This document shows, piece by piece, positions 3,398 to 32,366 of a stretch of 64,000 nucleotides of DNA. Each line of letters starts with the position of its first letter. Position 1 is the first letter of the stretch. This DNA comes from an uncultured Planctomycetota bacterium. GTDB lineage: Bacteria > Planctomycetota > PLA2 > JAEUHO01. Under the pieces are notes generated by a model. That model ran no database searches. It saw only the letters and a list, made by a program, of their open reading frames with translations, and had not been told where the DNA came from. The position numbers and the translations under genes were made by a program. The stretch covers positions 96,001 to 160,000 of the forward strand of contig CAVVXN010000002.1 of NCBI GenBank assembly GCA_963752285.1. Reading direction: 5' to 3'.

Positions 3398-3508
3398 CCC
3401 CCCGCGAAGACGCAACGCCGCTGCCTGTATCAGGCGCCCCGCTCGTGGACCGAATGGGTGACGCATGGGAGATCGCGCACCCGAGCCCGGACGGGCGGAG
3501 AGGATCGG

Positions 3509-4411
3509 ATGAGAGGCAGAACCCATCGTGGATGGACCACCGCCCTGGCGCTCACGGCGGCGCTGGCGTTCTCGGCGGGAGTGGGGCTCGCCGTCGGCAA
3601 CGCGACGACCGGGATCGGCAGCGGCGGCCGCGTGCTCGGCGACATCTCGCAGGAGCCGGGCGAGACCGACACGATCGGGCTCCACCTGATCGCCGGACAG
3701 GAGCTGACGCTCAAGCTCTCCGCCGCCTTCGACCCGACGGTCACCCTCCGCGGTCCCGACGGCACGCCGCTGCCGCTCGGCGTGACGCCGTCACGGAAGC
3801 TCGCCGTGAAGGGCCTGTCCGTGGCGCAGACCGGCGCGTACTCGTTGACCAGCGCCGCGACCTCCGGCACGCAGGGCCGCTACAAGCTGACGGCCCTCGC
3901 CGCCTGGCCGAAGAAGGTGGACCTGAGCGGCGACGGCCAGACCACGTTCGACGTCTGGATGCCCGCCGACGCCGCCTTCAAGGGCAAGTTCGTCTGCAGC
4001 GCCGGCGACGCATCGGTGGTCTCGGTCACCGACCCCTCCGGCGCGCAGATCGCGGGTCCGATCACGGGCCGCCGCGGGAAGGTCGCGTGGAAGTCGCTGC
4101 ACACGCCCGTGGCCGGCCTCTACCGGGTGACCATGGACGGGCCCGGCGCGTACCGCGGCACGGTCGTCCGGAAGGTCCGCAAGGCGCGCGGTGGCAACGT
4201 CGACGTGCGCAACGGGCTGTCGACGGTCAGCTTCGCCCGGGACGGCATCGCGCAGCTCTTCGCCTCGCGCTGCGCCGCGTGCCACACATGGGCCACCAGC
4301 TACTCCGGTGTGACGTCGTACGCCAAGCTGGCGTACGCCCGCATGCACAACGGCACCATGCCCCAGCAGGGACCTCCCGTGGTCGGCAGCGACCGGCGGG
4401 TGTCAAGGTAG
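3509..4411 (+). pseudogene. Secreted protein with C-terminal c-type heme domain, truncated by IS3
   Basis: Signal peptide, beta-rich domains, CAACH then MP (distal Met motif); the frame runs into the IS end at 4401. Confidence 0.65.
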
Positions 4412-5762
4412 TTGTCGCCTCGCGACATGTTCCTACGCAGCCTCTTCCGAGGCGGCCTCGATGCCCGTCTCGGGGTCGAGAGCAACCTCCTGCGGGCGAC
4501 TCCAGTCTCGGGTCTCCTTGGTCCAGCGGTTCGGATTCCGGGCCTTCGCGGCCTCGTGGAGCTCTCTGCGACGTGCCAGGATCTCGACGTCGTCGCCGTC
4601 GTGGCGTTGCCGCGGCGTCACGAACTTGATGGCGCTGTGTCGATGCTCGGTGTCGTACCAATCCACGAACCAGGCCGCCCAGCTGCGCGCCTGCTCGAGC
4701 GAGGCGAAGGGCTTGCGCGGGGACTCCGGGCGGTACTTCGTGGTCCGGAAGAGGGACTCCGAGTACGGGTTGTCGTTGCTCACGCTCGGCCTGCTGAAGG
4801 GCGGCACGACGCCGATGCTCTGCAGGAAGGCCAGCAGCGTGGCCGCCTTCATGGGCGCACCGTTGTCGGAGTGGATCACGAGTTGGTCGCGGCGCACGTC
4901 CTCACGCCGGCAGGCTGCTGCAATCATGGCCTGTGCGTGCTCGGCGGACTCCTCAGCCTGCAGCGTCCATCCCACGATCTTCCGGCTCCAGACGTCCATC
5001 ACGATGTAGTAGTAGAAGAACATCCCGCGCACGGGGCCGCGCAAGTAGGTGATGTCCCAGCTCCACACCTGGTTCGGGCCCGTGGCGACGTGTTCATCGG
5101 GCTTGTGGCGCTCGGTCGGCGGGCGCGAGGGCTCGCGGTGCTTCTGCATCTTCGCTTCGTGCAGGATCCGGTAGAACGTCGACTCACTGCCGAGGTAGAC
5201 ACCGTCGTCGGCGAGCTGCGGCACGATCTGCTTGGGGCTGAGATCACGGTACTCAGGCGCCGTAGCGAGGGCCTTGGTGCGCCACGCTTCCAGCTCGGCC
5301 TCATGCACGCCCTCCCGGCGCAGGAAGGCCCCCAACTCCTCTTCGGAGAGGGCCGAGGCCTCCAGCACGAGGCGGAGCTTGTCCTGGGCGGTGCGGCGGG
5401 CGGAGCCCTTGGACCGGGACTGGCGCTTCTTCTTCGTCATGGGCGAGACGGTAGGCTGCGCCTCGGACGCTCGGCGCAGCCACCGCGACAACGTGTTCTG
5501 CGATACCCCGACCTCCGTGGCAAGGGCCGTCGCGCTGATGGACTCCGGTCCCGCCATGCGCTGGACCATGCGAGCCTTGAAGCCTGCGGTGTACGTGGAC
5601 ATTCACGTCTCCACCGCCCCCTGAGAATCGTTCTGAAAAAAATCGCCCCCCATGGGGGGCCTGCCCTACGGGCAGGAAGAGGGGAGGCCGTGCCCTACCG
5701 AGGCTTCGCCTTGGCAGGGGCCCCACGGCCCCCCCCAGAGGCGGGCGACAACTACGCTGACA
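4401..5762 (-). mobile_element. IS3-family insertion sequence, internally deleted
   Basis: Terminal IRs tgtcaaggtagttgtcgcc (4401-4419) and revcomp of 5744-5762 tgtcagcgtagttgtcgcc match at 17/19; TG...CA ends; encloses a DDE transposase. Confidence 0.85.
4433..5602 (-). CDS. IS3-family transposase (OrfA HTH joined in frame to OrfB rve core)
   Basis: N-terminal HTH YTAGFKARMV...VGVSQNTLSRW; DDE motifs WSWDITYL, HSDNG, NPYSESLFRTTK. Confidence 0.9.
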   Translation of the reverse strand: MSTYTAGFKARMVQRMAGPESISATALATEVGVSQNTLSRWLRRASEAQPTVSPMTKKKRQSRSKGSARRTAQDKLRLVLEASALSEEELGAFLRREGVHEAELEAWRTKALATAPEYRDLSPKQIVPQLADDGVYLGSESTFYRILHEAKMQKHREPSRPPTERHKPDEHVATGPNQVWSWDITYLRGPVRGMFFYYYIVMDVWSRKIVGWTLQAEESAEHAQAMIAAACRREDVRRDQLVIHSDNGAPMKAATLLAFLQSIGVVPPFSRPSVSNDNPYSESLFRTTKYRPESPRKPFASLEQARSWAAWFVDWYDTEHRHSAIKFVTPRQRHDGDDVEILARRRELHEAAKARNPNRWTKETRDWSRPQEVALDPETGIEAASEEAA

Positions 5763-5794
5763 CAGGGGGGAGCCGATGGCGCTGCGGTTGGGGA

Positions 5795-5856: not shown

Positions 5857-5860
5857 TCGC

Positions 5861-6220
5861 ATGCCGAAGACGACGAGCATCACCGAGGCGGTCATCAGCC
5901 TGATCCAGACGATGGAGGACGTGGTCCGACGGTTCGGCGACCGGATCGAGCGCGGCCCCGAGGTTCGATCAGTGCCCCACGAGGCCGCGAAGCCTCGTCG
6001 CGTCCGGGATCGGTCGCCACGAACCCCGGCTGCCGAGAGGGCCGCCTCGGCGCCGCGCGCTCCGGCCTCCGGCGCCCCGAAGGTCCGCGGGACGTCCGAG
6101 AAGCTCCGCTCGGCCCTCAAGAACCACTGGGCGAACATGACGCCGGAGGAGCGCGCCGCGCGCATCGCGAAGATGCGGGCCGGCCACCGGAAGGGACGGG
6201 CGCGGGGCACGACGAGCTGA
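5861..6220 (+). CDS. Small basic hypothetical protein (119 aa), possible nucleic-acid binder
   Basis: Strong RBS; MPKTTSITEAVISLI...SEKLRSALKNHWANMTPEERAARIAKMRAG; Arg/Lys/Ala/Pro rich. Confidence 0.7.
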   Translation: MPKTTSITEAVISLIQTMEDVVRRFGDRIERGPEVRSVPHEAAKPRRVRDRSPRTPAAERAASAPRAPASGAPKVRGTSEKLRSALKNHWANMTPEERAARIAKMRAGHRKGRARGTTS

Positions 6221-6792
6221 GAGGCCAGTCCCGGGCGTACGCGATCCGTCGCGTAGGGCGGACGAGGACCTCGGGAACGGCGGACGGGGCGTTTCCGGCG
6301 GCGGCGCGGCAGCCCCCGAAGGCGCCGCACCACGACGTGCGCCATCGCACTCGCGTGATCCGTCTCGAGCCGCGTCGGGCAGGCGACGGGGGCGCCCGGA
6401 GGGTGGGCCCGGCGGCTCGTCCTCGCTCGACGTTCGCGCTGGCCCGCGCCTCCGCCGGACTCGCGCGAGGACCGCTCGCCCCGGGTCGGCGACGCGCGGT
6501 CCACCCCGCGTCGTCCCCGCGGACCGGGTCACCTCGACGTGCGTTCGGGCCCCCGGTCTGTGGGAGGACGGGCCGCGGCTCCGGGGTGACCGACGGGGGG
6601 GACCCCGACTTCGTCGCGTGCGCCGTCCCATGGCCCTGCGAACCGGCGCGAGGGCGTTTCGAGCCCGCGCGCGCCGGGGAACCCGCGGTCGGACGTGGGG
6701 CTGGCCCGGGTCGATCTCCGTGCCGGCCCGGGCGTGTCGGACCCCTCGGGTAGGTTCACGTCCCAGACCGCGCTTCTTCGAAAGGTTTCGAC

Positions 6793-9330
6793 ATGTCCTT
6801 CGAGCCTTCGCCGACCGGGGCGTCCCGGGCGGTTGCGGGCGCGGTCTGTTCGGCCGGCTCCCCGAGCCTGGCCGCGGCGTCCCCTTCGGCGCCCGACGCC
6901 GCTTCGCCGACCCCGCTCCCTTGCCACACCTCCCCCTACTTCGAAGCCGGGCTCCTCGGGGGGCTCGCCGCGGCCGAGATCCGCGAGCGGCTGGCCGGGA
7001 ACCGCCGCACGACCGACCTCGGCCACCGCCGGGACGCCTGGTACCTCGCCGAGGTGCACACCCGCCGCCTCTACGAGGACACCGGCCACCGAAGCACCGT
7101 CGAGTTCGCGGGCGACGTGCTGCGGCTCGACCGCCGCCGCACGCGCGAGCTCGTTCGGGTGGGCAAGCGGCTGCTCGAGCTTCCCCTCGTGGACCTCGCG
7201 TTCCTCCGCCGGGAGATCTCCTGGTCGCACGTGCTGGCGCTCGTGCGCGTCGTCGTGCCCGAGACGCAGTCGGACTGGCTCCTCTACGCGATGACGGAGC
7301 CGGTGCGCGACCTGGACCTCCAGACGCGACTCGCGCGCCCGGGCGACCGTCCGCGGCGCCCCGGCCAGTCCAAGGGAACGCCGGAGGTGCGCTTCCCGTT
7401 TCGGGTCAGCGTATCGAGCCTGCTCCAGCGGAAGATCGAGGACGTGCAGCAGGTGCTCTCGAAGGAGCGGGGCGTTTCGCTCGGGCTCGCTCAGGTGCTC
7501 GAGATGCTCTGCGACGTGGCCCTCGCCACCCCGTCCGACCCCGCGGACCCCAAGGTCGAGACGCGCGTGGACCGCAGCCGCTACACGCTCGTCGTCCACG
7601 ATCGCGGCGGCGACGGCGGTCTGACGGTCAAGACCCGCCATGGCGAGGTGCCGATCGACGGAGCGGGCCGGGAGGACCCGCTCGTCGCGCGCGTCCGGAG
7701 CGAGATGATCCGCTGCGACGCTCGCTGCCTCAAGTGCGACGGCCATGGCGGCGTCGAGGAGCACGTGAAGACGCCGCCGCACCTGCGCGCGAGGGTGCTC
7801 CGGCGGGACGGACATCGCTGCGTCTGCTGCGGCCGCGCCCAGGGGCTGATGGTGCACCACATCCGGTGGCGGAGTCGCGGGGGCCTGACGAACGCCCGAG
7901 GCCTCGTGACGTTGTGTGAATGGTGCCACGCGCTCGTGCACGCGGCGCTCCTCGTGTGCGTGGGCGAGCACGCCAGCAGGATCGAGTTCCAGGACCGCTT
8001 CGGGAGGCGGCTCGGCGGAGGCAAACGACGAAAGCGGGTGGCGGCCTCGGTGATCGCCGAGCTCCTGGCGCAGGTGCCCGTGCTGGCCGGGAGCACGGGC
8101 GGAAGCGTCGAGGAGCCTTCCTTCTCGTTCGACGACTTCCCGGACGCCGTCGATGCCGGGACGTGGCGCCGCCACGCGCATCTCGTCGAATTCGAGGGCG
8201 GCGCGATGCGGCTTCGCCCCGGGCGGCCGCTCGACGTGGAGACTCCGTCGGCGCGTGCGCGGCCCGAGCCGCAGCCGGCGAAGGCCGCGTTCGAGAAGGT
8301 CCTCGGCCGCGAGGCGCTGGTGTACCGCTTCGACGTGACCGCGAGGGCTCGGCGCCTTCGGGGGGAGCCCTTCCCGCACGTGCTCCTCAGCGGCGCGCCC
8401 GGGATGGGCAAGACGTCGATCGCGCGCGGGCTCGCGGCGATGCTCGGCGGGCGGCTCCACGACATCGTCGGTCCGCTCCTCTTCGACAAGGTGACCCTGC
8501 TCCGCCAGCTCCTCGAGATGGAGGACGGGGACGTGCTCTTCCTCGACGAGGTGCACGGGGTTCCCCGACCGGTGCTCGAGGTGCTCTACCGGGCGATGGA
8601 GAGCGGGGAGATCAGCCTTCCGCTCCGGGCCGGGGCGCGCCAGAAGATGGTGCGGTTCGTGCTGCCTCGCGTGACGCTCCTGGCCGCCACGACCGAGCCG
8701 GGGACCCTACCGGGCGCGTTCACGAGCCGCTTCGGCTTCGTGGAGCACCTGGTCCCCTACGGGCGCGAGGATCTGGCGCGGATCGCGGCGGCGCGGGCGA
8801 AGAAGGCCGGGCGCCCGGTGGCGCCCGAGGCCGCGATGACGGTCGCGGAGGCGTCCACGGGGACGCCGCGCGACGCGCTCCGACGCATGGACCAGGTGCT
8901 CGACGAGGCGGCGCTTCACGACGTGCCCCGCGTCACGCGCGCGTTCACCCAGGCGACCTTCGAGCGGCTGGGCTGGTCGCCCGACGGGCTCTGGCCCCTC
9001 GAGCGCTCCTACCTCGACCTCGTGCCCGCGGGCGGGCAGGCGGTCTCGCTCGGACGGATCGCGGGGGCGCTGGGGCTCGACGTGAAGGCGGTCGCGTGGG
9101 ACGTGGAGCCGCGGCTCGTCCGGCGGGACTTCGTCCGTGTGACGCCGAGGGGGCGGGTGCGGGGCGCCGCGGGGCGGGCCCGACGACGCTCTTTGGCGAC
9201 GGCCGCCGGCGCGAGCCCCGCCGGACGGCTGACGACGCGCCGGACGTCCGGCGCCGGTGCGCCCGGCGTCCGGCGGGGCCTTCGGGCTCCACGGCGCCCT
9301 CCCCGAGCGGATTCTCGAGGCCTCGCGTGA
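6793..9330 (+). CDS. DUF222-like + HNH endonuclease + RuvB-type AAA+ ATPase fusion protein
   Basis: HNH: RVLRRDGHRCVCCG...VHHI..RSRGGLTNARGLVTLCEWCHALVH; RuvB: HVLLSGAPGMGKT, DVLFLDEVH, LYRAME, TLLAATT, SRFG, GTPR, EPRL..TPRGR. Confidence 0.85.
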   Translation: MSFEPSPTGASRAVAGAVCSAGSPSLAAASPSAPDAASPTPLPCHTSPYFEAGLLGGLAAAEIRERLAGNRRTTDLGHRRDAWYLAEVHTRRLYEDTGHRSTVEFAGDVLRLDRRRTRELVRVGKRLLELPLVDLAFLRREISWSHVLALVRVVVPETQSDWLLYAMTEPVRDLDLQTRLARPGDRPRRPGQSKGTPEVRFPFRVSVSSLLQRKIEDVQQVLSKERGVSLGLAQVLEMLCDVALATPSDPADPKVETRVDRSRYTLVVHDRGGDGGLTVKTRHGEVPIDGAGREDPLVARVRSEMIRCDARCLKCDGHGGVEEHVKTPPHLRARVLRRDGHRCVCCGRAQGLMVHHIRWRSRGGLTNARGLVTLCEWCHALVHAALLVCVGEHASRIEFQDRFGRRLGGGKRRKRVAASVIAELLAQVPVLAGSTGGSVEEPSFSFDDFPDAVDAGTWRRHAHLVEFEGGAMRLRPGRPLDVETPSARARPEPQPAKAAFEKVLGREALVYRFDVTARARRLRGEPFPHVLLSGAPGMGKTSIARGLAAMLGGRLHDIVGPLLFDKVTLLRQLLEMEDGDVLFLDEVHGVPRPVLEVLYRAMESGEISLPLRAGARQKMVRFVLPRVTLLAATTEPGTLPGAFTSRFGFVEHLVPYGREDLARIAAARAKKAGRPVAPEAAMTVAEASTGTPRDALRRMDQVLDEAALHDVPRVTRAFTQATFERLGWSPDGLWPLERSYLDLVPAGGQAVSLGRIAGALGLDVKAVAWDVEPRLVRRDFVRVTPRGRVRGAAGRARRRSLATAAGASPAGRLTTRRTSGAGAPGVRRGLRAPRRPPRADSRGLA

Positions 9331-9382: not shown

Positions 9383-11950
9383 TCAACCCCGGAGCGTGGA
9401 CGGGCTTCGCGCCTCCGGTACGACGTGGTGCGGCACCGTCGCGACCGACTTCGGGTTCCCCGAGGTCGTCGCGTGCTCGGTCAGGACGCGGGTCAGCTCG
9501 TCGAGCGTGAAGGGCTTCTCGAGGACGTGGTTCCCGGTCTTCTTGACGGAGGTCATCACGTCCTCGTTCGCGTAGTCGCCCGTCATGAAGACCATCCGGC
9601 TCGCCTTCTCGGGGTCCTTCTCGGCGACGATCCGGTGCAGGTCGATGCCCGACGTGCCGGGCATCCGGATGTCCACGAGCAGCGCGTCGTAGTCGCCCTC
9701 CGAGAGCATCCGCATGGCCTCGGAGGCGTTCGACGTCGAGTCCACCCGGCAGCCGAGGCGGCCGAGCTGACCGACCAGCGCCTCGCGGACGTCCTTCTCG
9801 TCGTCCACGACGAGCACCCGGAGCGCCACGGACCCGCCCGTGGAGGGGAGGGGCGCCGCCGCGGCCGGCTCCTCGCCCGCCGGCAGGCGCGAGCGGGGGA
9901 GCTTCAGGACGAAGCGGGCGCCGCCGCGGACCGTGTCGTCGAGCAGGAGGTCGCCGCCGTGGTCCCTCGCGACCGAACGGGCGAGCGCGAGGCCGAGGCC
10001 GGTGCCCTGGTTCGCGCCCTTCGTGGTGAAGAACGGCTGGAAGATCTTCGCGCGGAGCCCCTCGGGGATGCCCGGGCCCGAGTCCTGGATCGTGGCGACC
10101 AGCGAGTCGGGGAGGGGGCGCATCTGGATCGTGATCTTGCGCTCGCCCTCGTGGTCCTTCAGCGCGTGGATCCCGTTCTGGACCAGGTTCACGAAGATCT
10201 GCTGGAGCGAGTGCTTGTCTCCGAGCACGGGCGGGAGGCCCTCGGGCGCGTCCATCTCGAGCTTCACGTTCGTGAGCCTCGCCTCGTAGGCGAAGAGCTC
10301 GAGGACGGTCTGGGCGACTTCCGGCAGCGCGAGGTGCGTGCGCTCGGGGTTTCTCTGCCGCGCGACCGAGAGGAGGTTCTTCACGATCCGGGTGGCGCGG
10401 ACGGCCTGCTCGCGGATCTTCCCGAGCGTCTGGCCGACCTTCGTCTCGTCCACGTGGTCCTTCAAGAGGTCCGCGTAGCCGATCAGGGCCGTCAACGGGT
10501 TGTTGAGCTCGTGGGCCACGCCCGCGAGCGTCTGGCCGACGAGCGTCATCTTCTCGGACTGGACGAGCCGGGCGCGGGCCATCTCCTCGTCGGTCACGTC
10601 GGAGAGGGTGACGAGCGTTCCGAGGCGCTGGGCGCCGTCGAGGATCCCGATCGCCGTGCAGGCGAGGTGGATCGGGCCCTCGTCCTCCGGGCCCGCGAGG
10701 AGCGCGCGGAACCGCCGCGACACGCCCGCGGGCGTCTCGGCGAGGTCGGCCAGGCGGTGCTCGCCGATCGCCTCGGGGAGCGGGACGTGCGTGCCCGGGC
10801 AACCGAGCGCGCGGCGCGCGGCGGGGTTCGCGAGGAGCACGCGACCGTCGGGGCCGAGGAGCAGCACGCCCTCGCGCATCTGGCGGAGCAGGAGCGAGGT
10901 CCGACGGTGCTCCTCGCTGCCCTGACGTTCGATCCGCTGCATCGCCTCGCCGACCCGGCGGGCGACGTCGGCCAGCACGCCGATCCGGCGCTCCTCGATG
11001 GCGCTCCGGCGGGGGTCCGCGATCACGAGCACGCCGCCCACGCGGCCGCCCGCGCGGATCGGCACCTCGACGAGCGTGCGGTACTCGAGCGCGTCGGGCA
11101 GGAGCCGGCTCCCGACGGAGCGCGCCTCGATCTTCGGGATCACCATGTGGTTCCCGTGCCGCGACATCGACTCCTGCAGGAACGAGCGGCGCCGCTCGGC
11201 GTGGTCGTCGGTGAGTCGGCCGTTCTCCTCCCAGAGCGCCACGCTCTCGGACTTCGTCTCGAGCGCGACCGCGCGCGCGCGGACCGCGAGGTGACAGCGG
11301 AGGTGTCGCACGATCGCCTCGGCGAGCTCGTGGAGCCCGCCGGAGGACGCGAGCGCCTGCGCGAAGGTGACGAGCTCGGCCGCCTCCGACTCCCGTTCGC
11401 GCATCTCCTTCTCGAGGCGGTCGTGGAAGAGCTTCCGGCTCTGCTCCTCGCGTACGAACCCCAGCACGCGGGCCGACTCGTAGCTCGCGGCGAGAAGGAG
11501 GATCACCTGGTAGACCAACAGCTCGAGGTCGGGGGCCTGATGCTGGAGCGTCGCGAACAGGGTCGTCGCGAGCCCCATCGACATCGCGCCCGCCATGGTG
11601 CCGAGCAGCGACGCGGTGACCGTCCCGCCGACCACGGCCACGAGCACCGCGACCGTGTATCCGGCGAGGAAGGCGGCTTGGGGCTGGAAGCCCTGATGGA
11701 GCCAGCATCCGGCCGCCCCGACCAGGAGCAGATCGCCGGCCAAGAGGAGGAGCGCCACGGGCGGGCTCGTGTGCCGTCGCCACGCGAGGAGCGTCCCGAG
11801 GAAGAAGAAGACGAGCTGCCCCGCGAGGATCGAGGAGAGGATCGTCTGATGCGTCATGCCGAGGCCCGCGCAACGCCAGGCGATCGCGAACGTCACGGCG
11901 AGGACGACGGCGCGGAGGAGGATCGCGCTGAGGAGTCGGGAGGGACGCAT
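9383..11950 (-). CDS. Membrane hybrid sensor histidine kinase (TM-GAF-PAS-HisKA-HATPase-REC)
   Basis: H-box AGVAHELNNPL, N-box NLVQNG, DSGPGI, FFTTK, GTGLGL; receiver VLVVDDE..DIRMPG..KPF; start taken at MRPSRLL. Confidence 0.9.
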   Translation of the reverse strand: MRPSRLLSAILLRAVVLAVTFAIAWRCAGLGMTHQTILSSILAGQLVFFFLGTLLAWRRHTSPPVALLLLAGDLLLVGAAGCWLHQGFQPQAAFLAGYTVAVLVAVVGGTVTASLLGTMAGAMSMGLATTLFATLQHQAPDLELLVYQVILLLAASYESARVLGFVREEQSRKLFHDRLEKEMRERESEAAELVTFAQALASSGGLHELAEAIVRHLRCHLAVRARAVALETKSESVALWEENGRLTDDHAERRRSFLQESMSRHGNHMVIPKIEARSVGSRLLPDALEYRTLVEVPIRAGGRVGGVLVIADPRRSAIEERRIGVLADVARRVGEAMQRIERQGSEEHRRTSLLLRQMREGVLLLGPDGRVLLANPAARRALGCPGTHVPLPEAIGEHRLADLAETPAGVSRRFRALLAGPEDEGPIHLACTAIGILDGAQRLGTLVTLSDVTDEEMARARLVQSEKMTLVGQTLAGVAHELNNPLTALIGYADLLKDHVDETKVGQTLGKIREQAVRATRIVKNLLSVARQRNPERTHLALPEVAQTVLELFAYEARLTNVKLEMDAPEGLPPVLGDKHSLQQIFVNLVQNGIHALKDHEGERKITIQMRPLPDSLVATIQDSGPGIPEGLRAKIFQPFFTTKGANQGTGLGLALARSVARDHGGDLLLDDTVRGGARFVLKLPRSRLPAGEEPAAAAPLPSTGGSVALRVLVVDDEKDVREALVGQLGRLGCRVDSTSNASEAMRMLSEGDYDALLVDIRMPGTSGIDLHRIVAEKDPEKASRMVFMTGDYANEDVMTSVKKTGNHVLEKPFTLDELTRVLTEHATTSGNPKSVATVPHHVVPEARSPSTLRG

Positions 11951-12136
11951 GGGCTCTCGAAGGGGCGGCCCCCGGGGCGTGCCCCCGGAGTTCCGACCGC
12001 TCGACCTATCGACGCCCGACCGCGGGCGACTTGAGACGAGGCGAGGGGCTCCGAGGCCCGGAAAATGGGCCTGAGAGCGCGGTTTCCACCCGGGCGGGCG
12101 GCGCGGGTGTTCGCCGGCCCCTGGTAGAACCTCGCC

Positions 12137-13219
12137 GTGGCCCAGCGAACCGCCCTCCCGGAGCCCTCGGGCCACAAGGACGCCGTGTTCGGGCTGGCCG
12201 AGGAGGAGGGCCGGGTGCTCCTCCTTCGAAACCCGAGGTTCGTGGGCGGCACGCGTCGCTCGACCTGGGACCTCCCCGGCGGCACCGTGGAGCCCGGCGA
12301 GCGTCTCCAGGACGCCCTCGTCCGCGAGTGGCGCGAGGAGACGGGCCTCTCCTGTCGCCCGGGGCCGCTCCGGCTCGTGGTGGACGGCGTGAAGCGCCGG
12401 GCCGAGGGAGCCCCCCCGATCCGGACCTGGCGGGCCTTCCTCTTCTCGGTCGAGACCGCGGGCGACCCCGCGCCGGGGGCGGGGATCGACGAGGTCCGGT
12501 GGGTCCTTAGAGACGACGCCCTCGTGTGCCTCGAGGCGCCCTACCACGCGGCGCTTCGGGCCCACCTCCGAGGCGACGAGCGTCTCTACGCCCACGTCGA
12601 GTGGATCGACCCGATCCCCGAGGGCGTCCTCGAGGCGTCCCTCCCCGGCGTGCTCCTCCTCGGCCGGGTCGCCGCGACGGCGGCCGTCGGCGAGGCCGCG
12701 GCCCTCCTGGCGGCCGTGGACCGCGCGCTCGACGCCGGCGAAGCCCCCGTGCGCGTCGCCGAAGCCCTCCTCCAGGTCGTCCCGTACGCGGGGTTCCCGC
12801 GCGCGATCGCGGCGTTTCGGGTGGCGGCGTCGAAGCTCGCGGATGTACCGCGCGGGGTCCCCGCCGGGCCGCGGCCGAGCGGCCGCGAGGTCTTCGAGCA
12901 GGTCTACGGCGAGACCGCGGCGCGCGTCCGCGAGGGCCTGGAGCGGCTCGACCCGGCGCTCGCACGCTGGACCGAGGCCTTCGCGTACGGCGAGGTCCTC
13001 GCGAGACCGGGCCTCACGCTCCTCGAGCGCGAGATCCTCGCCGTCCAGATCCTGACGGCGATGGGCCACCTCGACGACCCGCTCCTCGGCCACCTGCGCG
13101 CCGCGCTGCGCCTCGGCGCGACGCCGCCCCTCCTCGCCGACGCGATCCGGCTCGCCACCGGGGCGAACGTGCCGGCAGGTCGCACGTCGCGGGCCCTGGC
13201 CCTCCTCGCCCGCGCTTGA
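12137..13219 (+). CDS. NUDIX hydrolase fused to carboxymuconolactone-decarboxylase/AhpD-like domains
   Basis: Nudix box LPGGTVEPGERLQDALVREWREETGL; CMD-like EALLQVVPYAGFPRAI and EREILAV...HLRAALRLGAT. Confidence 0.8.
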   Translation: MAQRTALPEPSGHKDAVFGLAEEEGRVLLLRNPRFVGGTRRSTWDLPGGTVEPGERLQDALVREWREETGLSCRPGPLRLVVDGVKRRAEGAPPIRTWRAFLFSVETAGDPAPGAGIDEVRWVLRDDALVCLEAPYHAALRAHLRGDERLYAHVEWIDPIPEGVLEASLPGVLLLGRVAATAAVGEAAALLAAVDRALDAGEAPVRVAEALLQVVPYAGFPRAIAAFRVAASKLADVPRGVPAGPRPSGREVFEQVYGETAARVREGLERLDPALARWTEAFAYGEVLARPGLTLLEREILAVQILTAMGHLDDPLLGHLRAALRLGATPPLLADAIRLATGANVPAGRTSRALALLARA

Positions 13220-13515
13220 GCTCGAGGCCGCGGCGGCCGGGGAGCCTCGGTCCGGCCGTGCGAGGCCGTTCGCAGCCGCGCCGACGCGGGGCGAAGATCT
13301 CGCGGCCCCTCCAACGAGATGGGAATCCGTGCCTCGGCTGGGCGGGGCTGGCGAGGTACACCCGCCTGCGGGAGACGAGGACGAGGTCACTCGCCCTAGT
13401 GGGTCCTTCAGCGTTCTGCCCCAGCCGGTCCCCACGCCTGTTCGTTGCACCCACGCGATCGGTACATGGGGTGGGAGGTCCCGGGCGCGTCGTGTTCACC
13501 AGATTGGACGTCGGG

Positions 13516-13531: not shown

Positions 13532-13673
13532 TCTGCTGGGCCCTCCGTCCCGTCCCCGAGCCGAGTGTGGAATTTTGTCCCAAGCCCGTGGTCCTGGCGG
13601 CCACTAGAGCAGCGAGGGCCGCTGGTGCCATCGCACCGGCACGGGCCCAATCCTCCGGGAGGAATCGGCCGAG

Positions 13674-14375
13674 ATGAAGACGTTCCCGCTGCGCTTGTCG
13701 ATCGGACTGCTGGCCACGCTCGGTGCGATGACCGCCTGGGCGGGTCACGCCCGCGCGGACTCCATCGACTGGCGGTCCGGGGTTCTTCCTTCGGCCGCGA
13801 GCGGGGACACAGTCGACGACGACGGGTACAGCTTCGGCAACGTGAACTTCGCGAACTCGATCAACGACGACCTCAAGGGAACGTCCCTCACCTTCACGTT
13901 CACCGGGGGCACGCTGACCGTCACGGCGTTCACGGGCGACGGGAGCTCGCCGAGCCAGGCCTACTACGACCGGAACACCATCACCCGGGGCATGGGTGTG
14001 CAGGCGTCGGGTTTCGGTGGGGACAACGAGCAGATCGACGTCAACGGCGACGACCTGCTCCGGCTCAGCTTCAGCACCCAGGTCGAGGTGACCGAGGTCT
14101 ACTTCGTGAACCGCGATCACGGGACCGGGTTCACGGGGGGCTACTCGGGAGACTACGACATCAACGGGACGACCGGGGATCTCGCCGCGTCCGTGTCGTT
14201 CGCCCCTGGCACGCTGGTCGGGTCCGTGTTCGACTTCACGGCGCCGAACCAGGACTACTACGTGGGCAAGATCGTGTTCAGCGTCGTCCCGGTGCCGGAG
14301 CCCGGCACGCTCGCGCTGCTCGGCCTCGGCATCGTCGGTCTCGGCGTCCGTCGCCGCAGGGCGCGCCGGGCCTAG
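13674..14375 (+). CDS. PEP-CTERM sorting-domain surface protein
   Basis: Signal peptide ending ARA; C-terminal VPEPGTLALLGLGIVGLGVRRRR. Confidence 0.92.
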   Translation: MKTFPLRLSIGLLATLGAMTAWAGHARADSIDWRSGVLPSAASGDTVDDDGYSFGNVNFANSINDDLKGTSLTFTFTGGTLTVTAFTGDGSSPSQAYYDRNTITRGMGVQASGFGGDNEQIDVNGDDLLRLSFSTQVEVTEVYFVNRDHGTGFTGGYSGDYDINGTTGDLAASVSFAPGTLVGSVFDFTAPNQDYYVGKIVFSVVPVPEPGTLALLGLGIVGLGVRRRRARRA

Positions 14376-20416: not shown

Positions 20417-21504
20417 CCGCTCCCTGTCGCCATCCCACCTGCCTCGTCGGCCTCCTGAGCCTCGGCCTCGTCCTGGCCGGGTGCGCCGCCGACCAGGTCG
20501 AGCATCCCGTGGACGTGCATCGGCTCCTCGCTCCGGCTTCACCGTGCGACGACGGGTTCCGCGCCGTGCCCGAGTCCGAGCTCGTCCGCGTCGTCTTGCC
20601 TCCGCCCGCGCCCTACCGGCTCGGCGTCGGCGACGTCGTCTACGTCGCGGTGCCCGGCCAGGAGAAGTTCGCCGGGTTCGGAGAGACCGCGACGGGGGAG
20701 GTGGTGGGAACGCGGGTGAAGGAGGACGGCAACCTCTACCTGCCCCTGATCCGTACGGTCCCCGCCGCGGGGCGGACTGCGATCGAGCTCCAGGAAGACA
20801 TCCGAAAGCGCCTCTCGGAGTTCGTCCAGGAGCCGTACGTCAGCGTGGACGTCCTGGAACACCACTCCCAGCGCTTCTACGTGTTCGGGGAGGTCAAGGA
20901 CCCCGGCGCCTTCCCGGTGGACGGCCACACGACGCTGCTCGACGGTCTCTCGGCGGCCGGAGGTCCGGAGAGCGGGACGGCGGATCTCGACGAGGCCTAC
21001 GTCGTCAGGGACGGGAACGTGCTCCCGTTGAGCCTCGCGGACGTCCTCGAGCACGGAGACAAGAGCGGCAACCTGGTGATGCGCGACCGCGATCTCGTGT
21101 TCGTCCCGCACGTACGGGACCGGAGCGAGTTCGTCTACGTGCTCGGAGAGGTGAAGCGCGCCGGCGCCGTGCCCATGCACGTCGATCCCGCTCGCCCCGG
21201 TGCGCCGGCGCGGATGACGCTCGCCGAGGCGCTGGCCCAGGCGGGCGGGCTCGACCTCGACACGGCCGCCCAGGACCAGATCCGCGTGTTCCGGGGCGAC
21301 TGGCGCTGTCCGCGCGCCTACACCCTGAGCGCGCACGAGGTGTACGCGTACGGCGAGGGCATGCGCCTCGAGCCCGGAGACCGCGTCCTCGTCGCGCCCA
21401 CGGGACTGGCCACCTGGGGCCGGGCGCTCAAGCAGGCCACCCCGTTCCTCAGCGGGGCGACGACCGCGGTGGCCGCCAGCGCGACGGTCGGGGCGCTCAA
21501 GTGA
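20413..21504 (+). CDS. wza: Polysaccharide export lipoprotein (Wza/OPX)
   Basis: Lipobox LAGC; YRLGVGD, DGNLYLPLI, GEVKDPG and further SLBB repeats. Confidence 0.88.
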   Translation: MTAPCRHPTCLVGLLSLGLVLAGCAADQVEHPVDVHRLLAPASPCDDGFRAVPESELVRVVLPPPAPYRLGVGDVVYVAVPGQEKFAGFGETATGEVVGTRVKEDGNLYLPLIRTVPAAGRTAIELQEDIRKRLSEFVQEPYVSVDVLEHHSQRFYVFGEVKDPGAFPVDGHTTLLDGLSAAGGPESGTADLDEAYVVRDGNVLPLSLADVLEHGDKSGNLVMRDRDLVFVPHVRDRSEFVYVLGEVKRAGAVPMHVDPARPGAPARMTLAEALAQAGGLDLDTAAQDQIRVFRGDWRCPRAYTLSAHEVYAYGEGMRLEPGDRVLVAPTGLATWGRALKQATPFLSGATTAVAASATVGALK

Positions 21505-21547
21505 GGACGCGCGCCGCCCTGGTCCGCCCCCAGCCCGGGAGACCCCC

Positions 21548-24110
21548 ATGAACCGCGTTCGCGAGAGCTCCCGCGCCGCCAGCGGGACCGAGGCACGACC
21601 GGCGACGGCGCGCACGGAGTCACGCCGCGCCCGGCCGCGCGCGGTCCACTTCTCCGACTACCTGGCGATCGTACGAGACCACCTCCTCGCGGCGGGGACC
21701 GTCGGGCTCGGGATCCTGGCGTGGGTGGTCCTCGCGGCGCTCTTCTCGACGCCCGTGTACGAGGCGAGGTCGAGGCTCCAGATCGACGTCGGAGGACAAC
21801 AGCGGGACGACCTCGTGTCCGACCTCATGCTCTTCGGCACCTCGACCGTCCAGAGCACCGAGGTCGAGGTGATCCGCTCGTACGCCGTCGCGAAGCGGGT
21901 GGCGGACGATCCCGTGGCGCGGGCCACCGCCCTGCTGGAGGAGAAGAGCGTCTACCGTCCGCTCGAGACGCTCGTCCGACCCTACCTGCACGCGAGCTGG
22001 CGACCCTGCCATCTCGAGTTCGACCCGGCGCATCTCCCGTCGGTCCGGCGGACGGCGAGCTGGAAGCTCTCGTTCGACGCGCAGGGGCGCCTCACGATCT
22101 CGGGCGCGGGCGCCGAGGCGGTCACCGTGGAACGGGTCGGCCTCGGCGAGCCGTTCGAGGATCGGAACGAGAACGGCGTGTGGGACGCGGCGGAGCCCTA
22201 CGAGGACCAAAACGGGAACGCTGTCTACGACGCGCCGGTGCCCTTCGACGTCGGCGGACAGCACGTGGCTCTCGTGCTCGAGGAAGGGGACGTCCGCGGG
22301 CGCACCTTCCTCGCACGGCTCCGATCTCCCGAGGAGGCGGCCACCTGGGTGCACGAGGCGACCTCGGTCGAGCCGGTCGGCGACTGGAGCGGCATCGTGG
22401 ACGTGACGGTGCGCGCCGAGAGCCCCGTGGTCGCGACGAGGATCGCAGACGCCGTGGGACGTGCGTACCTCGGCCTGCGTCAGGAGCGGCGACGAGAGCG
22501 AACGGACCGGACCCTCGACTGGCTGAAGGCGGAGACGAAGCGGGTGGAGGACGATCTCCTCCATGCGGTGGACGCGCGGGACGCGTACGTGAAGCAGACC
22601 GGCGCCACGATGCTCACGGAGCAGGCGACGGGGATCTACGAGCGACAGGGCGAGCTCGTTCGGCAGCGGTTCGAGCTCGAACAGAGGAAGCTCGGCCTCG
22701 ACGCCGAGCTCGCGCTCCTCGCGGGCACCCACAGCACCGACGAGCTCCTGACCGCCATCGGGGCGACGAGCCTCGACGCCCGCACGACGACGCTCGTCCA
22801 GCAGGAGGCCGATCTCGAGATGCAGCGGGCCCTGCTGCTCCGCAGCCTCACCGATCGGGATCCCAAGGTGGAGGAGGTGGACGCGAAGATCGCCTTCGTG
22901 CGCGACCAGCTCACCGCCTCGATTGGAGGCCTCGTGACCGAGCGGAGGAACGCGCTCGACGTGGAGCGCTCGCAGGTGGCGGCGAGCCTGGCGCAGATCG
23001 ACCGGGAGGAGGCGCGGCAGCAGAGGCTCCTGTCCCAGCTCCCCGACGCCGAGCGGAAGCTGGTGGAGCTCGGACGGCCCATCGAGTCGAACGAGACCTT
23101 CCTGGTCTCGCTCAAGAAGTCGCAGAAGGAGGTGGAGATGGCACGGGCCGGGGCCGTGGCCACGGCGAGCGTCATCGACCCGGCCGTCGCGAATCCGGGG
23201 CGGAAGAGCCCCGTTCTCCTCAAGACGCTCATCGTCGGCGTGCTCCTCGGGCTGCTCGGGGGGGTCGGCACCGCGTTCGGACTCGAGTACATGAACCGCA
23301 CGGTTCGGAGCTCGCAGGAGATCGAGGACGGCCTCGGCGTGCCGGTCCTCGGCACCATCCCCCTCTTCCGATCCGTCGATCGACGACTGGGGCGCCGGGG
23401 CCAGGGAGCCCTCGTCGCAGAGGACGCGCCGAGGTCCGCGGCGGCCGAGCCCTACCGGACGCTCTTCGCGAGCATCCGGTACCCCTCCACGGAGGCGGCG
23501 GTACGTACGGTCGTCGTCACTTCGTCCCTCGCCCAGGAGGGGAAGACGGTCACCACGTTGAACCTCGCGATCACGATGGCGCGCGCGGGGCGCAAGGTGC
23601 TCGTCGTCGATGCGGACACGCGTCGTCCCACCACGCACGTCCATCTCGGAGGTACGCGCGACCACGGTCTCGTGGACGTCCTCGAGGGCCAGGCGAGGTG
23701 GCAGGACGTCGTCCGCGCGACCCAGACGCCGGGCATGTCCCTGGTGGCCGCGGGGCACCCGGCCGAGAATCCCACGGCGCTTCTCGACTCGGACGCCTTC
23801 CGCTCCTTCCTCGCGGAGGTGCGGGACGCGTTCGACTACGTGCTCTTCGACGCCCCGCCCGTGCTCGCGGTGGCGGACGCCGCCGCGTTCGTGAGAGAGC
23901 TCGACGCCGTCGTCTTGCTCGTCCGACAGGGGCGCTATCCCCTCGACACGGCCCGCGCGGCCCTCGAACAGATCGAGAGGCTGGGGGGGAAGGTCCAGGG
24001 CGCGGTCTTGAACGCGTTCGACCTTCGACGCGCCGCGCGGACACGCGTACGGGTACTACGGCTACTACGGCAAGTACCAGGACTACGGGAACGGCGGGGC
24101 GACGACGTGA
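21548..24110 (+). CDS. wzc: Polysaccharide co-polymerase / BY-kinase (Wzc); C-terminal Tyr cluster shifted out of frame near 24037
   Basis: Two TMs flanking coiled coils; Walker SSLAQEGKT, LVVDAD, VLFDAPP; GHAYGYYGYYGKYQDY-TGA(24108-24110) in the +1 frame. Confidence 0.88.
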
Positions 24111-25345
24111 CCGTCCCGGTCGTCCAGGGACGGCTGGCCCCGCGCCCCGCGCGCGTCCCGGGAGCCCCGCGCGTCGCGGTCTGCCACCCGCGACTGGGGC
24201 ATGGGGGGTCCGAAGCGAGGGCCCTCTGGTTGCTGCAGGCGCTCCGCGCGCAGTACGACGTGACGTTGGTGACCCTGGGGCCGGTCGACCTGCCGCGGCT
24301 CAACGCCTACTACGGCACCCGGCTCGAGCCGTCCGACCTTTGCGTCTCGCGACCCCGTGTCGGGCGATGGCTCGCGCGACGGGCGTCGGGGGACGCCCTG
24401 CGCACCGCCGTGCTCGAGCGGCACGTCCGGAGCCGGGCCGCCGAGTACGACCTGTTGATCAGCGCGCACAACCTCCTCGACTTCGGGCGGCCGGGCATCC
24501 AGTTCATCGCGGACTGGAGCTTCCTGCCGCACGTCCGTCGATCTCTCCACGGCTCCACGTCCGTGCTGGACGGCCGGGGCCCGGGGCGTACCTGTGCGCG
24601 CTGCGCCTACCGGTCGATCGTCCGGGCCGTTCGAGCCGGCCGAGCGTCGCCGGGACCCCGGAGTGACGACTACGTGATCGCGAACTCCGCGTTCACGGCG
24701 CGCATGATGGTCCAGCACCTGGGGCGCGCGCCGGACGCGGTCCTGTACCCGCCGGTCGGCGGGCCTCCCGACGGGGACACGCACGAGGAGCGCCGCCCGG
24801 ACTTCGTCTCGTTGGGACGCATCCGTCCCGAGAAGCGCATTCCCGATCAGATCGAGATCCTCCGCAACGTCCGCGCCCGGGGGCACGACGTGTCGTTGCG
24901 CCTCTGCGGGGGTCCGGTCACGGGCGACTACGCCGCGCACATTCGACGGCTCGTTCACGCCGAGGCCGGCTGGGTGTCGTGGGACGGTCCCGTCGAGGGC
25001 GCCGCGAAATGGGCCGTGCTCTCTGCGCATCGATTCGGCATCCACGCGACACGCGGCGAGGGCTTCGGGATCGCCACCGCCGAGATGATTCGCGCCGGCT
25101 GCATCGTCTTCGCGCCGGACCACGGCGGGCCCGCCGAGCTCTTGGACGAGCCCGGCCTGACGTACGGATCACTCGGAGAGGCCACGGAGAAGATCGCCCT
25201 TCTCCTCGGGGACCCGGCCCGGCAGGCGCGGCTCGCCGCCCGGCTGCGGGACCGAGGGGCCCGCTTCACGGAAGAAGCGTTCACGAGCCGTTCCCTGGAC
25301 GTGGTCCGGGAGGTCCTCGAGCGCGGCGTGCGGAGGAGAGCGTGA
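24107..25345 (+). CDS. Glycosyltransferase family 4
   Basis: GTGA overlap; GGSE, ANSAFT, LYPPV, GRIRPEK, EGFGIATAE. Confidence 0.85.
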   Translation: MTVPVVQGRLAPRPARVPGAPRVAVCHPRLGHGGSEARALWLLQALRAQYDVTLVTLGPVDLPRLNAYYGTRLEPSDLCVSRPRVGRWLARRASGDALRTAVLERHVRSRAAEYDLLISAHNLLDFGRPGIQFIADWSFLPHVRRSLHGSTSVLDGRGPGRTCARCAYRSIVRAVRAGRASPGPRSDDYVIANSAFTARMMVQHLGRAPDAVLYPPVGGPPDGDTHEERRPDFVSLGRIRPEKRIPDQIEILRNVRARGHDVSLRLCGGPVTGDYAAHIRRLVHAEAGWVSWDGPVEGAAKWAVLSAHRFGIHATRGEGFGIATAEMIRAGCIVFAPDHGGPAELLDEPGLTYGSLGEATEKIALLLGDPARQARLAARLRDRGARFTEEAFTSRSLDVVREVLERGVRRRA

Positions 25346-28663: not shown

Positions 28664-29936
28664 AGGACGCCTACGACCCCGGGTCCTCCTCGTCGCGTAC
28701 GCCTGCGATCCCCACCGCGGCTCGGAGGAGGGCGTCGGCTGGGGGTGGGTACGAGCGATCGCACAGCATGCGGACGTCGAGGTGCTGACCGCCCACCATC
28801 ACCGCGCATCCGTTCTGCGCTGCCTTCCGGGGTCCGGTCTTTGCCGCGTCGGGTTCCGATTCGTTCCCCCCCGTCCCTGGCACTACCGACCCTCGCCCGG
28901 ATGGCGACGGATCGAGGGCTCGATCCTGAAACCGCTGATGAACTGGGCCTACGCACGATGGCTGGACGACGCGCTTCGCGTGGCCCGGAGGCTCCACCGT
29001 GCGCGCCCCTTCGACCTCGTCCACCTCGTGACGTACGTGGGCTACCGGTTTCCGGGGCGATTCTGGCAACTGGGGATTCCCTTCGTCTGGGGACCCATCG
29101 GAGGTCTCGAGAACACGCCCTGGCGCTTCCTGCCGGCGCTCGGATGGAGCGGGGCCCTCTACTACACCGGGCGCAACCTGGTGAACGACCTGCAACGTCG
29201 CGTCCTCCCGGGGCCGCGCAGAGCCTTCCGCCGGGCGAGCGCCGTGATCGCCGCCACGGGGGCCATCGAGCGTGAGATCCGGCGTTGGTATGGCGTGCCC
29301 GCTCGGGTGATCTCCGAGGTCGGGCTCCCCGACGCCCGCCCGGGGGAGGTGCGACATCGAGGGACCGACGAGCCGCTACGTCTCGTCTGGAGCGGCGAAC
29401 ACCTGCCGGGAAAGGCGCTGCCGCTCCTGTTCCGTGCGCTCGTGTCGAGCGAGGCGCCGGCGTCGTGGCGGCTCACCGTCCTCGGGGAGGGCCCTTGCAC
29501 CGCGGCCTGGCGGAAGCTGTCGGACCGCCTCGGCCTCGCCGATCGCTGCGAGTGGACGGGATGGATCCCGCGTGAAGCGGCGCTCGCGACGATGCGAGCG
29601 TCTCACCTGCTGGTCGTGACGAGCATGAAGGACCTCACCTCGACCGTGGTCCTGGAGGGCATGTCGCTGGGCCTCGCGGTGGTGTGCCCGGACCACTGTG
29701 GGTTCCCCGACGCGGTCACGTCCGGATGCGGACTGCGCGTCCCGGTGACCCGGCCGGCCGCGTTCGTGTCGGGGCTGGCCCGCGCGCTGCGCAGCCTTCA
29801 CGACGACGAGGCCCTGCGTCGGCGGCTGGCTGCCGGCGCGCTTCGACGCGCCGAAGCGTACTCCTGGAACGTCAAGGCCTTGAAGATCCGCGATGAGTAC
29901 AGCCGTGTTCTCGGACTCGCTCGCGCATCCGCCTAG
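28656..29936 (+). CDS. Glycosyltransferase family 4
   Basis: AYACDPHRGSEEGVGW, WGPIGG, KALPLL, VVLEGM. Confidence 0.88.
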   Translation: MPEGRLRPRVLLVAYACDPHRGSEEGVGWGWVRAIAQHADVEVLTAHHHRASVLRCLPGSGLCRVGFRFVPPRPWHYRPSPGWRRIEGSILKPLMNWAYARWLDDALRVARRLHRARPFDLVHLVTYVGYRFPGRFWQLGIPFVWGPIGGLENTPWRFLPALGWSGALYYTGRNLVNDLQRRVLPGPRRAFRRASAVIAATGAIEREIRRWYGVPARVISEVGLPDARPGEVRHRGTDEPLRLVWSGEHLPGKALPLLFRALVSSEAPASWRLTVLGEGPCTAAWRKLSDRLGLADRCEWTGWIPREAALATMRASHLLVVTSMKDLTSTVVLEGMSLGLAVVCPDHCGFPDAVTSGCGLRVPVTRPAAFVSGLARALRSLHDDEALRRRLAAGALRRAEAYSWNVKALKIRDEYSRVLGLARASA

Positions 29937-30870: not shown

Positions 30871-30930
30871 CGCCGCCCCCGGGACGGGCTCCGGGCTGCC
30901 CGCCGCCCGCAAGGGCGTGCGGGCGGTCGC

Positions 30931-32361: not shown

Positions 32362-32366
32362 GCGCC

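Follow-up and report, generated by a model that had tools for sequence, protein, structure and literature searches.

An 845-residue protein encoded in the chromosome of an uncultured Planctomycetota bacterium raises the question of what a RuvB-type motor does when it is carried in the same polypeptide as an HNH nuclease. In textbooks RuvB is the standard example of a motor that depends on other proteins for loading (RuvA) and for cutting (RuvC). The gene in question lies at positions 6793..9330 (+) of a 64,000-nucleotide stretch of contig CAVVXN010000002.1 (GenBank assembly GCA_963752285.1, positions 96,001 to 160,000), referred to here as the window, and its product, designated P0001, combines a helical head, an HNH nuclease, a small module termed WW and a RuvB-like motor. 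The HNH-RuvB fusion was first noticed in an annotation made from the DNA letters alone (the initial annotation); the observation is confirmed: the fusion is not a product of faulty assembly, and it recurs in other genomes. P0001 is a resident chromosomal paralogue and not a housekeeping RuvB. The members of its family are uncharacterised, and the chances appear about even that they are single-chain motor-nucleases, in which a self-loading, ATP-driven DNA pump carries a tethered nuclease.

Long open reading frames (ORFs) occur in every frame of the window, the DNA of which is 73% G+C (GC; range 68-78%), and an ORF of 675 residues (6529..8556, -) overlaps the P0001 gene on the opposite strand. 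An open frame alone therefore proves nothing. The gene forms one frame with an ATG start according to the ORF list and its translation, and GC at the third codon position reaches 0.86-0.98 in this frame from ~6800 to ~9125, with lower values in the other two phases. This bias, together with homology along the whole length, identifies 6793..9330 (+) as the frame that is translated. Upstream of the ATG, an AAAGG sequence is found in a short stretch of lower GC, just past an in-frame stop at 6751-6753. The coding signal weakens past ~9170, with third-position GC of 0.78 and 0.70 at 9200-9275. GC of the gene (0.747-0.748) matches that of its surroundings (0.68-0.78 across the window). The three-part architecture claimed for one uninterrupted frame is real. 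Every motif quoted in the initial annotation is present in the translation in its proper place: CVCC, VHHI, SRGG and TLCEWCH within residues 343-379, GAPGMGKT at 534-541, DVLFLDEVH at 580-588, LYRAME at 598-603, AATT at 631-634, SRFG at 645-648, GTPR at 690-693 and EPRL..TPRGR at 772-788.

An alignment of 39 full-length relatives (A1), which are 28-42% identical to P0001, contains four conserved blocks (N-domain, HNH, WW and the RuvB-like module at residues 498-792) with variable linkers between them. Mean pairwise identity is 0.38 in the N-domain, 0.48 in the HNH, 0.30 in the WW module, 0.43 in the ATPase domain, 0.34 in the lid and 0.41 in the winged helix, and 0.22-0.27 in the linkers. As all domains are similarly conserved (0.30-0.48) and the catalytic sites are kept, it can be argued that the parts work together. 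A full-length AlphaFold2 model, built on the 39-sequence family alignment, has a mean predicted local distance difference test score (pLDDT) of 79.7, with values mostly above 90 across the motor.

The protein begins with an Ala/Pro/Ser-rich leader (residues 1-50, 6793..6942), which is unconserved, relatives starting ~40 residues later, and is modelled as disordered (pLDDT 31-39). The helical N-domain (residues 55-250, 6955..7542) is remotely DUF222-like and bears a weak fold likeness to ParB/Noc DNA-binding domains. It is followed by a variable linker with a small beta unit (residues 251-324, 7543..7764; identity 0.27, pLDDT low or mixed, strands at 268-287), by the Cys4-zinc HNH nuclease (residues 325-395, 7765..7977), and by a second variable linker that is probably disordered (residues 396-444, 7978..8124; identity 0.22, pLDDT ~42). 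Directly before the motor stands the small conserved WW module (residues 445-492, 8125..8268), recognised from the A1 consensus and characterised by the family motif P..VD..WW.RHAHL...G.L.L.PG.P. It is modelled at pLDDT 80-93 as a helix (455-464) and a beta-hairpin (strands 465-468 and 471-474), and a Pfam search at E<=0.1 gave no match to it. The motor comprises a RuvB-type large ATPase domain (residues 498-653, 8284..8751) with Walker A K540, Walker B D585/E586, sensor 1 T633 and Arg finger R646, the RuvB AAA lid with sensor 2 R693 (residues 656-726, 8758..8970), and the RuvB C-terminal winged helix with its EP.L... and TPRGR motifs (residues 732-792, 8986..9168). An Arg-rich tail (residues 796-845 and stop, 9178..9330) is unconserved, is likewise modelled as disordered (pLDDT 35-39) and is possibly a run-on into the intergenic region. 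All of these features lie on the plus strand. Pfam profiles match P0001 for HNH (residues 343-383, 22.6 bits against a cut-off of 21.4), RuvB_N (500-653, E 1.4e-31) and RuvB_C (732-789, E 4.3e-8), and AAA_lid_4 (656-726) scores 25.3 bits, just below its cut-off of 27. Among the 39 A1 members, matches at E<=0.01 were found for HNH in 38, for AAA_lid_4 in 37 and for RuvB_C in all 39.

By the terms of the initial annotation, its claim would fall if the fusion were absent from all other genomes, and the fusion does recur. A full HMMER search against 1.84 billion representative proteins found 11,325 matches at E<=0.001, of which 4,244 reached E<=1e-10 and 443 reached E<=1e-30, and many of the best 150 matches are proteins of 700-850 residues aligned from residue ~54 to ~790. 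When 153 proteins were classified with domain hidden Markov models cut from A1, N-domain, HNH and RuvB occurred together in 99, and the WW module was detected in 72 of those 99. The other 54 are partial: HNH-WW-RuvB (13), RuvB only (11), WW-RuvB (9), N-HNH (9), N-HNH-WW (8), HNH-RuvB (3) and N only (1). Inspected N-only proteins have abrupt ends or frameshift-like tails, and most partial forms are read as probable fragments. One relative, P0009, is 75% identical to P0001.

Genomes were scanned with a four-row alignment (A3) and two peptide patterns from the N-terminal half, so that the number of copies and the breadth of taxa found are minimum values. From 62 candidate stretches, 14 were confirmed as loci, and relatives are present in nine metagenome-assembled genomes (MAGs). 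Twelve of the 14 loci lie in MAGs named Planctomycetota, Planctomycetia or Planctomycetales, and the remaining two in one MAG named 'uncultured bacterium'. In the ESM Atlas, P0001 is grouped with 'hypothetical proteins' in a cluster of 123 members, the commonest source of which is Planctomycetota. The family is thus from Planctomycetota wherever the source organism was named. Single MAGs carry two to three copies that are only 50-65% identical (65% for L008/L009 and 50% for L006/L013). The proteins of loci L003 and L004, from two MAGs, are 91% identical and share the same downstream genes, and these loci are therefore regarded as orthologues at a stable site. Recurrence in both the protein scan and the MAG loci shows that this is a conserved family and not an assembly artefact.

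A motor-less form of the head-nuclease also exists. At L012 (9863-11416), in a Planctomycetota MAG, a 517-residue relative has the N-domain, the HNH and part of the WW module without a RuvB module. Neighbouring genes that split the N-terminal half from the motor were considered and rejected: the N-domain and HNH gene of L012 is not followed by a RuvB gene, and N-only proteins look frameshifted or cut.

The motor retains the parts of canonical RuvB: RuvB_N, AAA lid and winged helix follow one another in the same order, and none of Walker A and B, sensor 1, Arg finger or sensor 2 is missing. Among solved structures, Thermus RuvB (1ixr_C; residues 500-793, E 3.5e-41) is the best relative, aligned with short gaps that total three residues, and Foldseek comparison of the model with the RuvB hexamer structures 8efv and 7pbl gave target-normalised template-modelling (TM) scores of 0.84-0.87. 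Over the 99 full-architecture members, the ATPase sites are kept in 96 (K540), 93 (D585), 94 (E586), 91 (T633), 91 (R646) and 88 (R693, with 10 gaps), most of the misses being gaps. The canonical RuvBs fetched for trees are proteins of 330-380 residues that are 32-39% identical to the P0001 module. Compared with these, P0001 has ~500 extra N-terminal residues, which form a DNA-binding-like head and a nuclease, and its family has no nearby ruvA or ruvC in the scanned loci and occurs in several copies per genome.

The initial annotation described the motor as a complete RuvB. This holds for its three domains and all its catalytic motifs; however, P0001 is a divergent paralogue by NCBIfam scores and trees. 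It falls below both NCBIfam RuvB equivalog cut-offs (NF000868, 206.6 against 282; TIGR00635, 177.5 against 299.05), and the family fragments that NCBI has named are labelled 'AAA family ATPase' and not RuvB. A RuvB phylogeny, which the initial annotation had proposed as a check, sets the fused modules apart from the sampled canonical RuvBs. In a quick IQ-TREE analysis of 129 rows, 45 canonical RuvBs and six odd-length proteins lie on one side of a branch of length 0.35 (Shimodaira-Hasegawa-like approximate likelihood ratio test (SH-aLRT) 99), and every HNH-fused module and family fragment lies opposite the canonical RuvBs. In a careful tree of 54 rows, one branch with ultrafast bootstrap (UFBoot)/SH-aLRT support of 100/100 separates 32 fused from 22 canonical modules. 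Both trees are unrooted. In the larger tree, P0052 and P0064 are nearest to the canonical group, and P0052 is also the clearest DUF222 match. The family consensus keeps the catalytic motifs without the canonical TSGPAlER.GDLAAiLTnL, EDfqlDi.iGkGP.ARsirLDLp, GATTR and PLRDRFG, having ATTe for GATTR and sRF for PLRDRFG. The second of these motifs is presumably the hairpin that contacts RuvA domain III; a hairpin is modelled at residues 606-613 and 616-623 of P0001, and the canonical hairpin consensus residues are not kept in the family. Given the sub-cut-off NCBIfam scores and the 100/100 branch, the sequences identify the RuvB module as a probable paralogue rather than an orthologue of canonical RuvB.

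These results bear on the suggestion that P0001 is the organism's only RuvB, with an HNH nuclease in place of RuvC and the head in place of RuvA. Such a housekeeping role would suit the completeness of the module, in which every catalytic motif is present, and the initial annotation's remark that the gene stands without RuvA or RuvC also proved accurate: no ruvA, ruvC or second ruvB was found among the scanned ORFs of the 64-kb window, which is part of a contig of 609,728 bases and in which P0001 is the only family copy, and no ruvA or ruvC was found beside the relatives at L003, L004, L006, L008 and L009. Nevertheless, planctomycetes generally have an ordinary ruvB, single MAGs hold two or three diverged copies of the family, and the equivalog scores, the NCBI naming and the well-supported branch away from sampled canonical RuvBs all count against this suggestion, which is highly improbable.

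The HNH domain of P0001 has the zinc-binding Cys pairs and catalytic His of such nucleases, its key residues being C343, C346, H355, H356, C375, C378, H379 and H383. Across the 99 full-architecture members, C343, C346 and H356 are present in every protein, H355 and C375 in 98, C378 in 92 (with His in a further six), H379 in 97 and H383 in 96. All 15 key sites match the consensus in 72/99 members, the nine HNH sites in 81/99 and the six ATPase sites in 88/99. The NCBIfam IscB HNH region matches the P0001 HNH at E 5e-10, and a search of the Protein Data Bank (PDB) with the family profile found HfmIscB (E 2.9e-8), CasD-HNH (7e-5) and ScoMcrA (6e-4), and also a group II intron maturase.

In the head, L130 and W162 are invariant across A1 and W144 is nearly so, and a helical core (approximately residues 80-170) is modelled at pLDDT >90 both in the full-length model and in a model of the N-terminal half alone, the latter built from translations of the fetched loci. 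The initial annotation called this region DUF222-type, a description that stands as remote homology seen in a minority of relatives; in P0001 itself, Pfam DUF222 was not matched at E<=0.1 or at E<=5. The clearest case is P0052, residues 39-132 of which pass the DUF222 cut-off (33.2 against 24.4 bits) over profile positions 23-117 of 306, and through this match the P0001 head can be linked, remotely, to the initial third of DUF222. When the N-terminal half was compared with PDB structures by Foldseek, the McrA HNH (8.5e-3) was followed by ParB/Spo0J/Noc DNA-binding domains (E 0.05-0.2; probability 0.92-0.99), with TM scores of up to 0.63 for the isolated DNA-binding domains 6s6h and 6y93. The ParB-like fold of the model is a lead to possible DNA binding, and neither a proof of it nor a sign of family membership. 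A profile search of the PDB revealed neither a ParB match nor RuvA-like sequence in the N-terminal half, and a search of a viral structure library matched only generic phage HNH proteins.

Look-alikes of the N-terminal half in the ESM Atlas include a cluster with DUF222 in 13% of its members. A further cluster, similar to P0001 residues 51-400, has 51 members, is commonest in Myxococcota, and carries HNH in 57% and RuvA_C in 24%. RuvA_C is the RuvB-binding domain of RuvA. If the likeness is real, these Myxococcota proteins would draw on RuvB in trans, in contrast to the covalent fusion of the P0001 family.

The reading of the family as self-loading pumps with a tethered nuclease implies the following sequence of events. 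The helical N-domain, DUF222-like and with its ParB-like fold, would bind DNA and so raise the local concentration of the protein, and the RuvB-type module would then form a ring around duplex DNA without RuvA. ATP hydrolysis would pump the duplex and, at a junction or fork, would drive branch migration. On the N-terminal face of each motor subunit, a tethered HNH domain would nick or cut the DNA as it is reeled in. One chain would in this way do what three proteins do in the canonical resolvasome, with RuvA for recognition and loading, RuvB as the motor and RuvC as the nuclease. In RuvAB-junction structures, the N-terminal side of the motor presumably points towards the junction and so towards the sites of RuvA and RuvC, a geometry that would suit a one-chain resolvasome. 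The architecture and its recurrence, the conserved catalytic residues, the RuvB fold and the distance from canonical RuvB are observed; that the motor forms rings, that the head binds DNA, that motor and nuclease are coupled and that RuvA is dispensable is inferred, as is the biological role.

A number of observations weigh against this reading. Ring formation is an assumption taken from homology, and the predicted TM score (pTM) of the full model is 0.50, so that the arrangement of the domains is uncertain. The canonical RuvBs in the trees were picked by words shared with the query, and those that are named belong to Actinomycetota and Burkholderiaceae, none being named Planctomycetota. DUF222 was matched in only three of ten N-terminal halves of relatives at E<=5 (best 1.1e-8), and only P0052 exceeded the cut-off among twelve proteins scanned singly (nine full-length members, the N-domain and HNH proteins P0152 and P0153, and the N-domain and HNH gene of L012). 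The ParB-like fold match is weak, the best ParB E-value being 0.05 and no PDB match reaching E<=0.001. Finally, P0001 has Gly370 (7900-7902) at the position of the family HNH Asn, which is present in 88/99 relatives, and the nuclease of this copy may, to judge from its sequence, be weakened; ten other members are also without the Asn. The initial annotation had taken N367 for the HNH Asn, and this residue lies three positions upstream of the family Asn position (370).

The glycine leads to the suggestion that the nuclease of P0001 is dead, and that this copy is only a motor or DNA remodeller, or is decaying. The end branch of P0001 is long (0.95 against a median of 0.71), and the C-terminal tail is unconserved, with a fading coding signal. 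However, P0001 keeps the other 14/15 key residues, coding periodicity is strong over the whole frame, and its relative P0009 is three-quarters identical. Moreover, the middle Asn of HNH motifs is generally structural and not catalytic. All six ATPase sites match the consensus in nine of the ten other members that lack the Asn, the tenth (P0096) being gapped at three, which argues that loss of the Asn is tolerated in the family. Three of the ten also deviate at a further HNH site. His stands at 378 in P0091, P0116 and P0136, and Gln at 379 in P0144. A dead nuclease in this copy is accordingly rather improbable.

The role of the proposed pump-nuclease is most likely the processing of DNA, either damaged or recombining DNA or else foreign DNA; the initial annotation had offered a junction resolvase, a homing or mobility factor and an anti-phage effector as candidate roles. 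Stable orthologues and native composition point to cellular repair or recombination, whereas diverged paralogues, the absence of partners and the kinship of the HNH point to genome conflict. Two leads would tie this HNH lineage to RuvB and to DNA damage. One is the Myxococcota cluster with RuvA_C, and the other is that the HNH endonucleases which mitomycin C induces in Mycobacterium tuberculosis are, presumably, DUF222 genes. Five putative HNH endonucleases of that species are described in an extract of PMC8151990 as induced by mitomycin C in a RecA-dependent manner.

The foreign-DNA side of this question has been considered as a single-gene defence against phages or plasmids, in which the head recognises foreign DNA, the motor translocates it and the HNH degrades it, in the manner of McrBC or a similar ATPase-nuclease. 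Sensor, motor and nuclease are indeed united in a stand-alone gene; no conserved partner gene was found beside the relatives, where the upstream ORFs of the window do not recur, and neighbours vary by locus (helicase, PAP2 and tRNA synthetase genes; sulfatase and phytase-like genes; Ser/Thr kinases; FG-GAP proteins). Several diverged paralogues per MAG, and nearest solved HNHs (IscB, Cas-HNH and McrA) that are restriction or RNA-guided nucleases, would also be in keeping with defence. In PADLOC-DB v2, however, no full-length match was found, and the matches are short and domain-level, to DpdF (2.7e-6, over 54 residues, 335-388) and, on the P-loop, to IetA (3.4e-5) and TRIP13. The window is ordinary chromosome with polysaccharide and carboxylase genes and is not a defence island, the composition of the gene is native, and L003 and L004 are syntenic orthologues. 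A tblastn search of 72,556 plasmids gave 61 records that match the RuvB part only (canonical-type RuvB), none of which covers 80% of the query, and the same was true of all 36 matching records among 50,697 phage records, although planctomycete mobile elements are surely under-sampled in both collections. A defence system of this kind is unlikely.

A related proposal is a selfish homing element, namely a free-standing DUF222-type HNH gene that would spread or maintain itself and promote gene conversion through a branch-migration motor of its own. DUF222-HNH genes are known as repeated elements in mycobacteria (REP13E12/HNH/DUF222), according to an extract of PMC10589994, and the P0001 family is likewise multicopy with unconserved neighbours. 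In addition, an insertion sequence (IS) element of the IS3 family (4400-5764) lies ~1 kb upstream of the P0001 gene. Nevertheless, copies within one MAG are only 50-65% identical, which argues against recent spread, the locus is stable between two MAGs, only one copy is present in the window, and the composition is native. No convincing flanking repeats stand out around the gene. Homing is thus distinctly unlikely.

The IS3-family element is bounded by inverted ends of 20 nt (4400-4419 and 5744-5763) that are 90% complementary, and encodes a transposase in a single ORF of 389 residues (4433-5602, -) with HTH_Tnp_1, rve and rve_3 domains. Its GC of 0.68 is below that of the surroundings. GGG on both flanks may represent the target duplication, and an ORF at 3398-4411 (+), which runs into the left end of the element, may have been truncated by the insertion. 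The stretch between the element and the P0001 gene is short and of unclear coding status; the best coding periodicity within it belongs to 5858-6220 (+; ~120 residues), which has no match in related loci. Downstream of P0001 lies a convergent gene for a hybrid histidine kinase of 1355 residues (9383-13450, -) with GAF, HisKA, HATPase_c and receiver domains. This ORF overlaps 12128-13219 (+), in which NUDIX and CMD domains are clear, and translation of the kinase probably starts further downstream, so that the first ~440 residues of its ORF would not be made.

The remaining window holds a large exopolysaccharide locus (~13600-35000 and 40700-42700), which includes PEP-CTERM proteins (13608-14375, 40683-42032 and 41546-42739), a 1338-residue Wzz/GNVR tyrosine-kinase-like protein fused to a glycosyltransferase (21329-25345) and a flippase (32826-34808), and also a Poly_export/SLBB protein, several glycosyltransferases and a Wzy_C ligase-like protein. 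At ~31100-31620, a WecG/TagA-family glycosyltransferase extends over two frames, in ORFs 29884-32367 (+; profile positions 1-96) and 31355-31756 (+; positions 95-167); the split is a frameshift near 31,400, whether real or a sequencing error. At 42743-47020 (-), a gene for an extracytoplasmic function (ECF) sigma factor (46309-46947) stands directly upstream of, and on the same strand as, that for a large Ser/Thr kinase with AAA_16 and TPR domains, and the two may form a signalling pair. Other genes of the window encode acyl-CoA carboxylase subunits, methylmalonyl-CoA mutase and LVIVD-repeat proteins. Rfam and tRNA searches found no RNA family and no tRNA in the window, and scans for promoters and terminators found nothing.

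Among known systems, DUF222-HNH proteins (PF02720 and PF01844) share with the P0001 family a helical N-domain followed by a CxxC...CxxC HNH, and a multicopy habit. The P0001 family differs in adding a C-terminal WW module and RuvB-type motor, and in occurring in Planctomycetota rather than Actinobacteria; even P0052 covers only the first third of the DUF222 profile, and P0001 has no match to it. McrBC is generally understood to follow a similar logic, in which a recognition domain and a ring translocase are joined to a nuclease that acts on reeled-in DNA. However, no sequence relationship with McrBC was found, and PADLOC matched neither an McrB nor an McrC model; in P0001 the motor is of RuvB type and binds ATP, and the HNH is in the same chain instead of being, as in McrBC, a separate PD-(D/E)xK subunit. 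The HNHs of IscB/Cas9-type, Cas5/CasD-HNH and McrA proteins are the closest solved HNH sequences, only a core of ~55 residues being matched, and P0001 differs from the IscB and Cas effectors in having no RuvC, PLMP or guide-RNA parts, in a window without an Rfam family. The ParB/Spo0J/Noc DNA-binding domain provides the best fold match for the N-domain, and P0001 is without the CTPase N-domain of those proteins.

The initial annotation knew of no characterised protein with this architecture, and no description of an HNH-RuvB or DUF222-HNH-RuvB protein was found in the full-text literature, subscription journals not being covered. The family is not treated in the extracts of PMC7736814, PMC7824862, PMC10589994 and PMC8151990, and databases list it only as 'hypothetical protein' or 'AAA family ATPase'. 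Each of its parts is of a known kind; novelty would lie in their combination, in the WW module and in the ability of a RuvB-type motor to work without RuvA.

A bolder form of the pump-nuclease reading, which is possible though doubtful, would make the family a one-chain resolvasome independent of RuvA and RuvC. Here a RuvB-type ring loaded by the head would drive branch migration, or pump duplex past six tethered HNH nucleases, diverged paralogues would recognise different DNA targets, and the Myxococcota HNH proteins with RuvA domain III would recruit the host RuvB in trans. If this is true, an HNH nuclease coupled to a RuvB motor would be a recurrent and unrecognised type of machine for DNA processing or genome conflict. 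With loader-like, nuclease and motor parts covalently joined, the family would offer a one-protein system for the loading of RuvB rings and the coupling of translocation to cutting, and would open a first functional approach to the DUF222-HNH proteins, a large group that is still enigmatic. Should its role lie in defence or self-propagation, a new type of motor would be added to such systems. For Planctomycetota, a phylum in which DNA transactions have hardly been studied, the family may represent a new ATP-driven nuclease.

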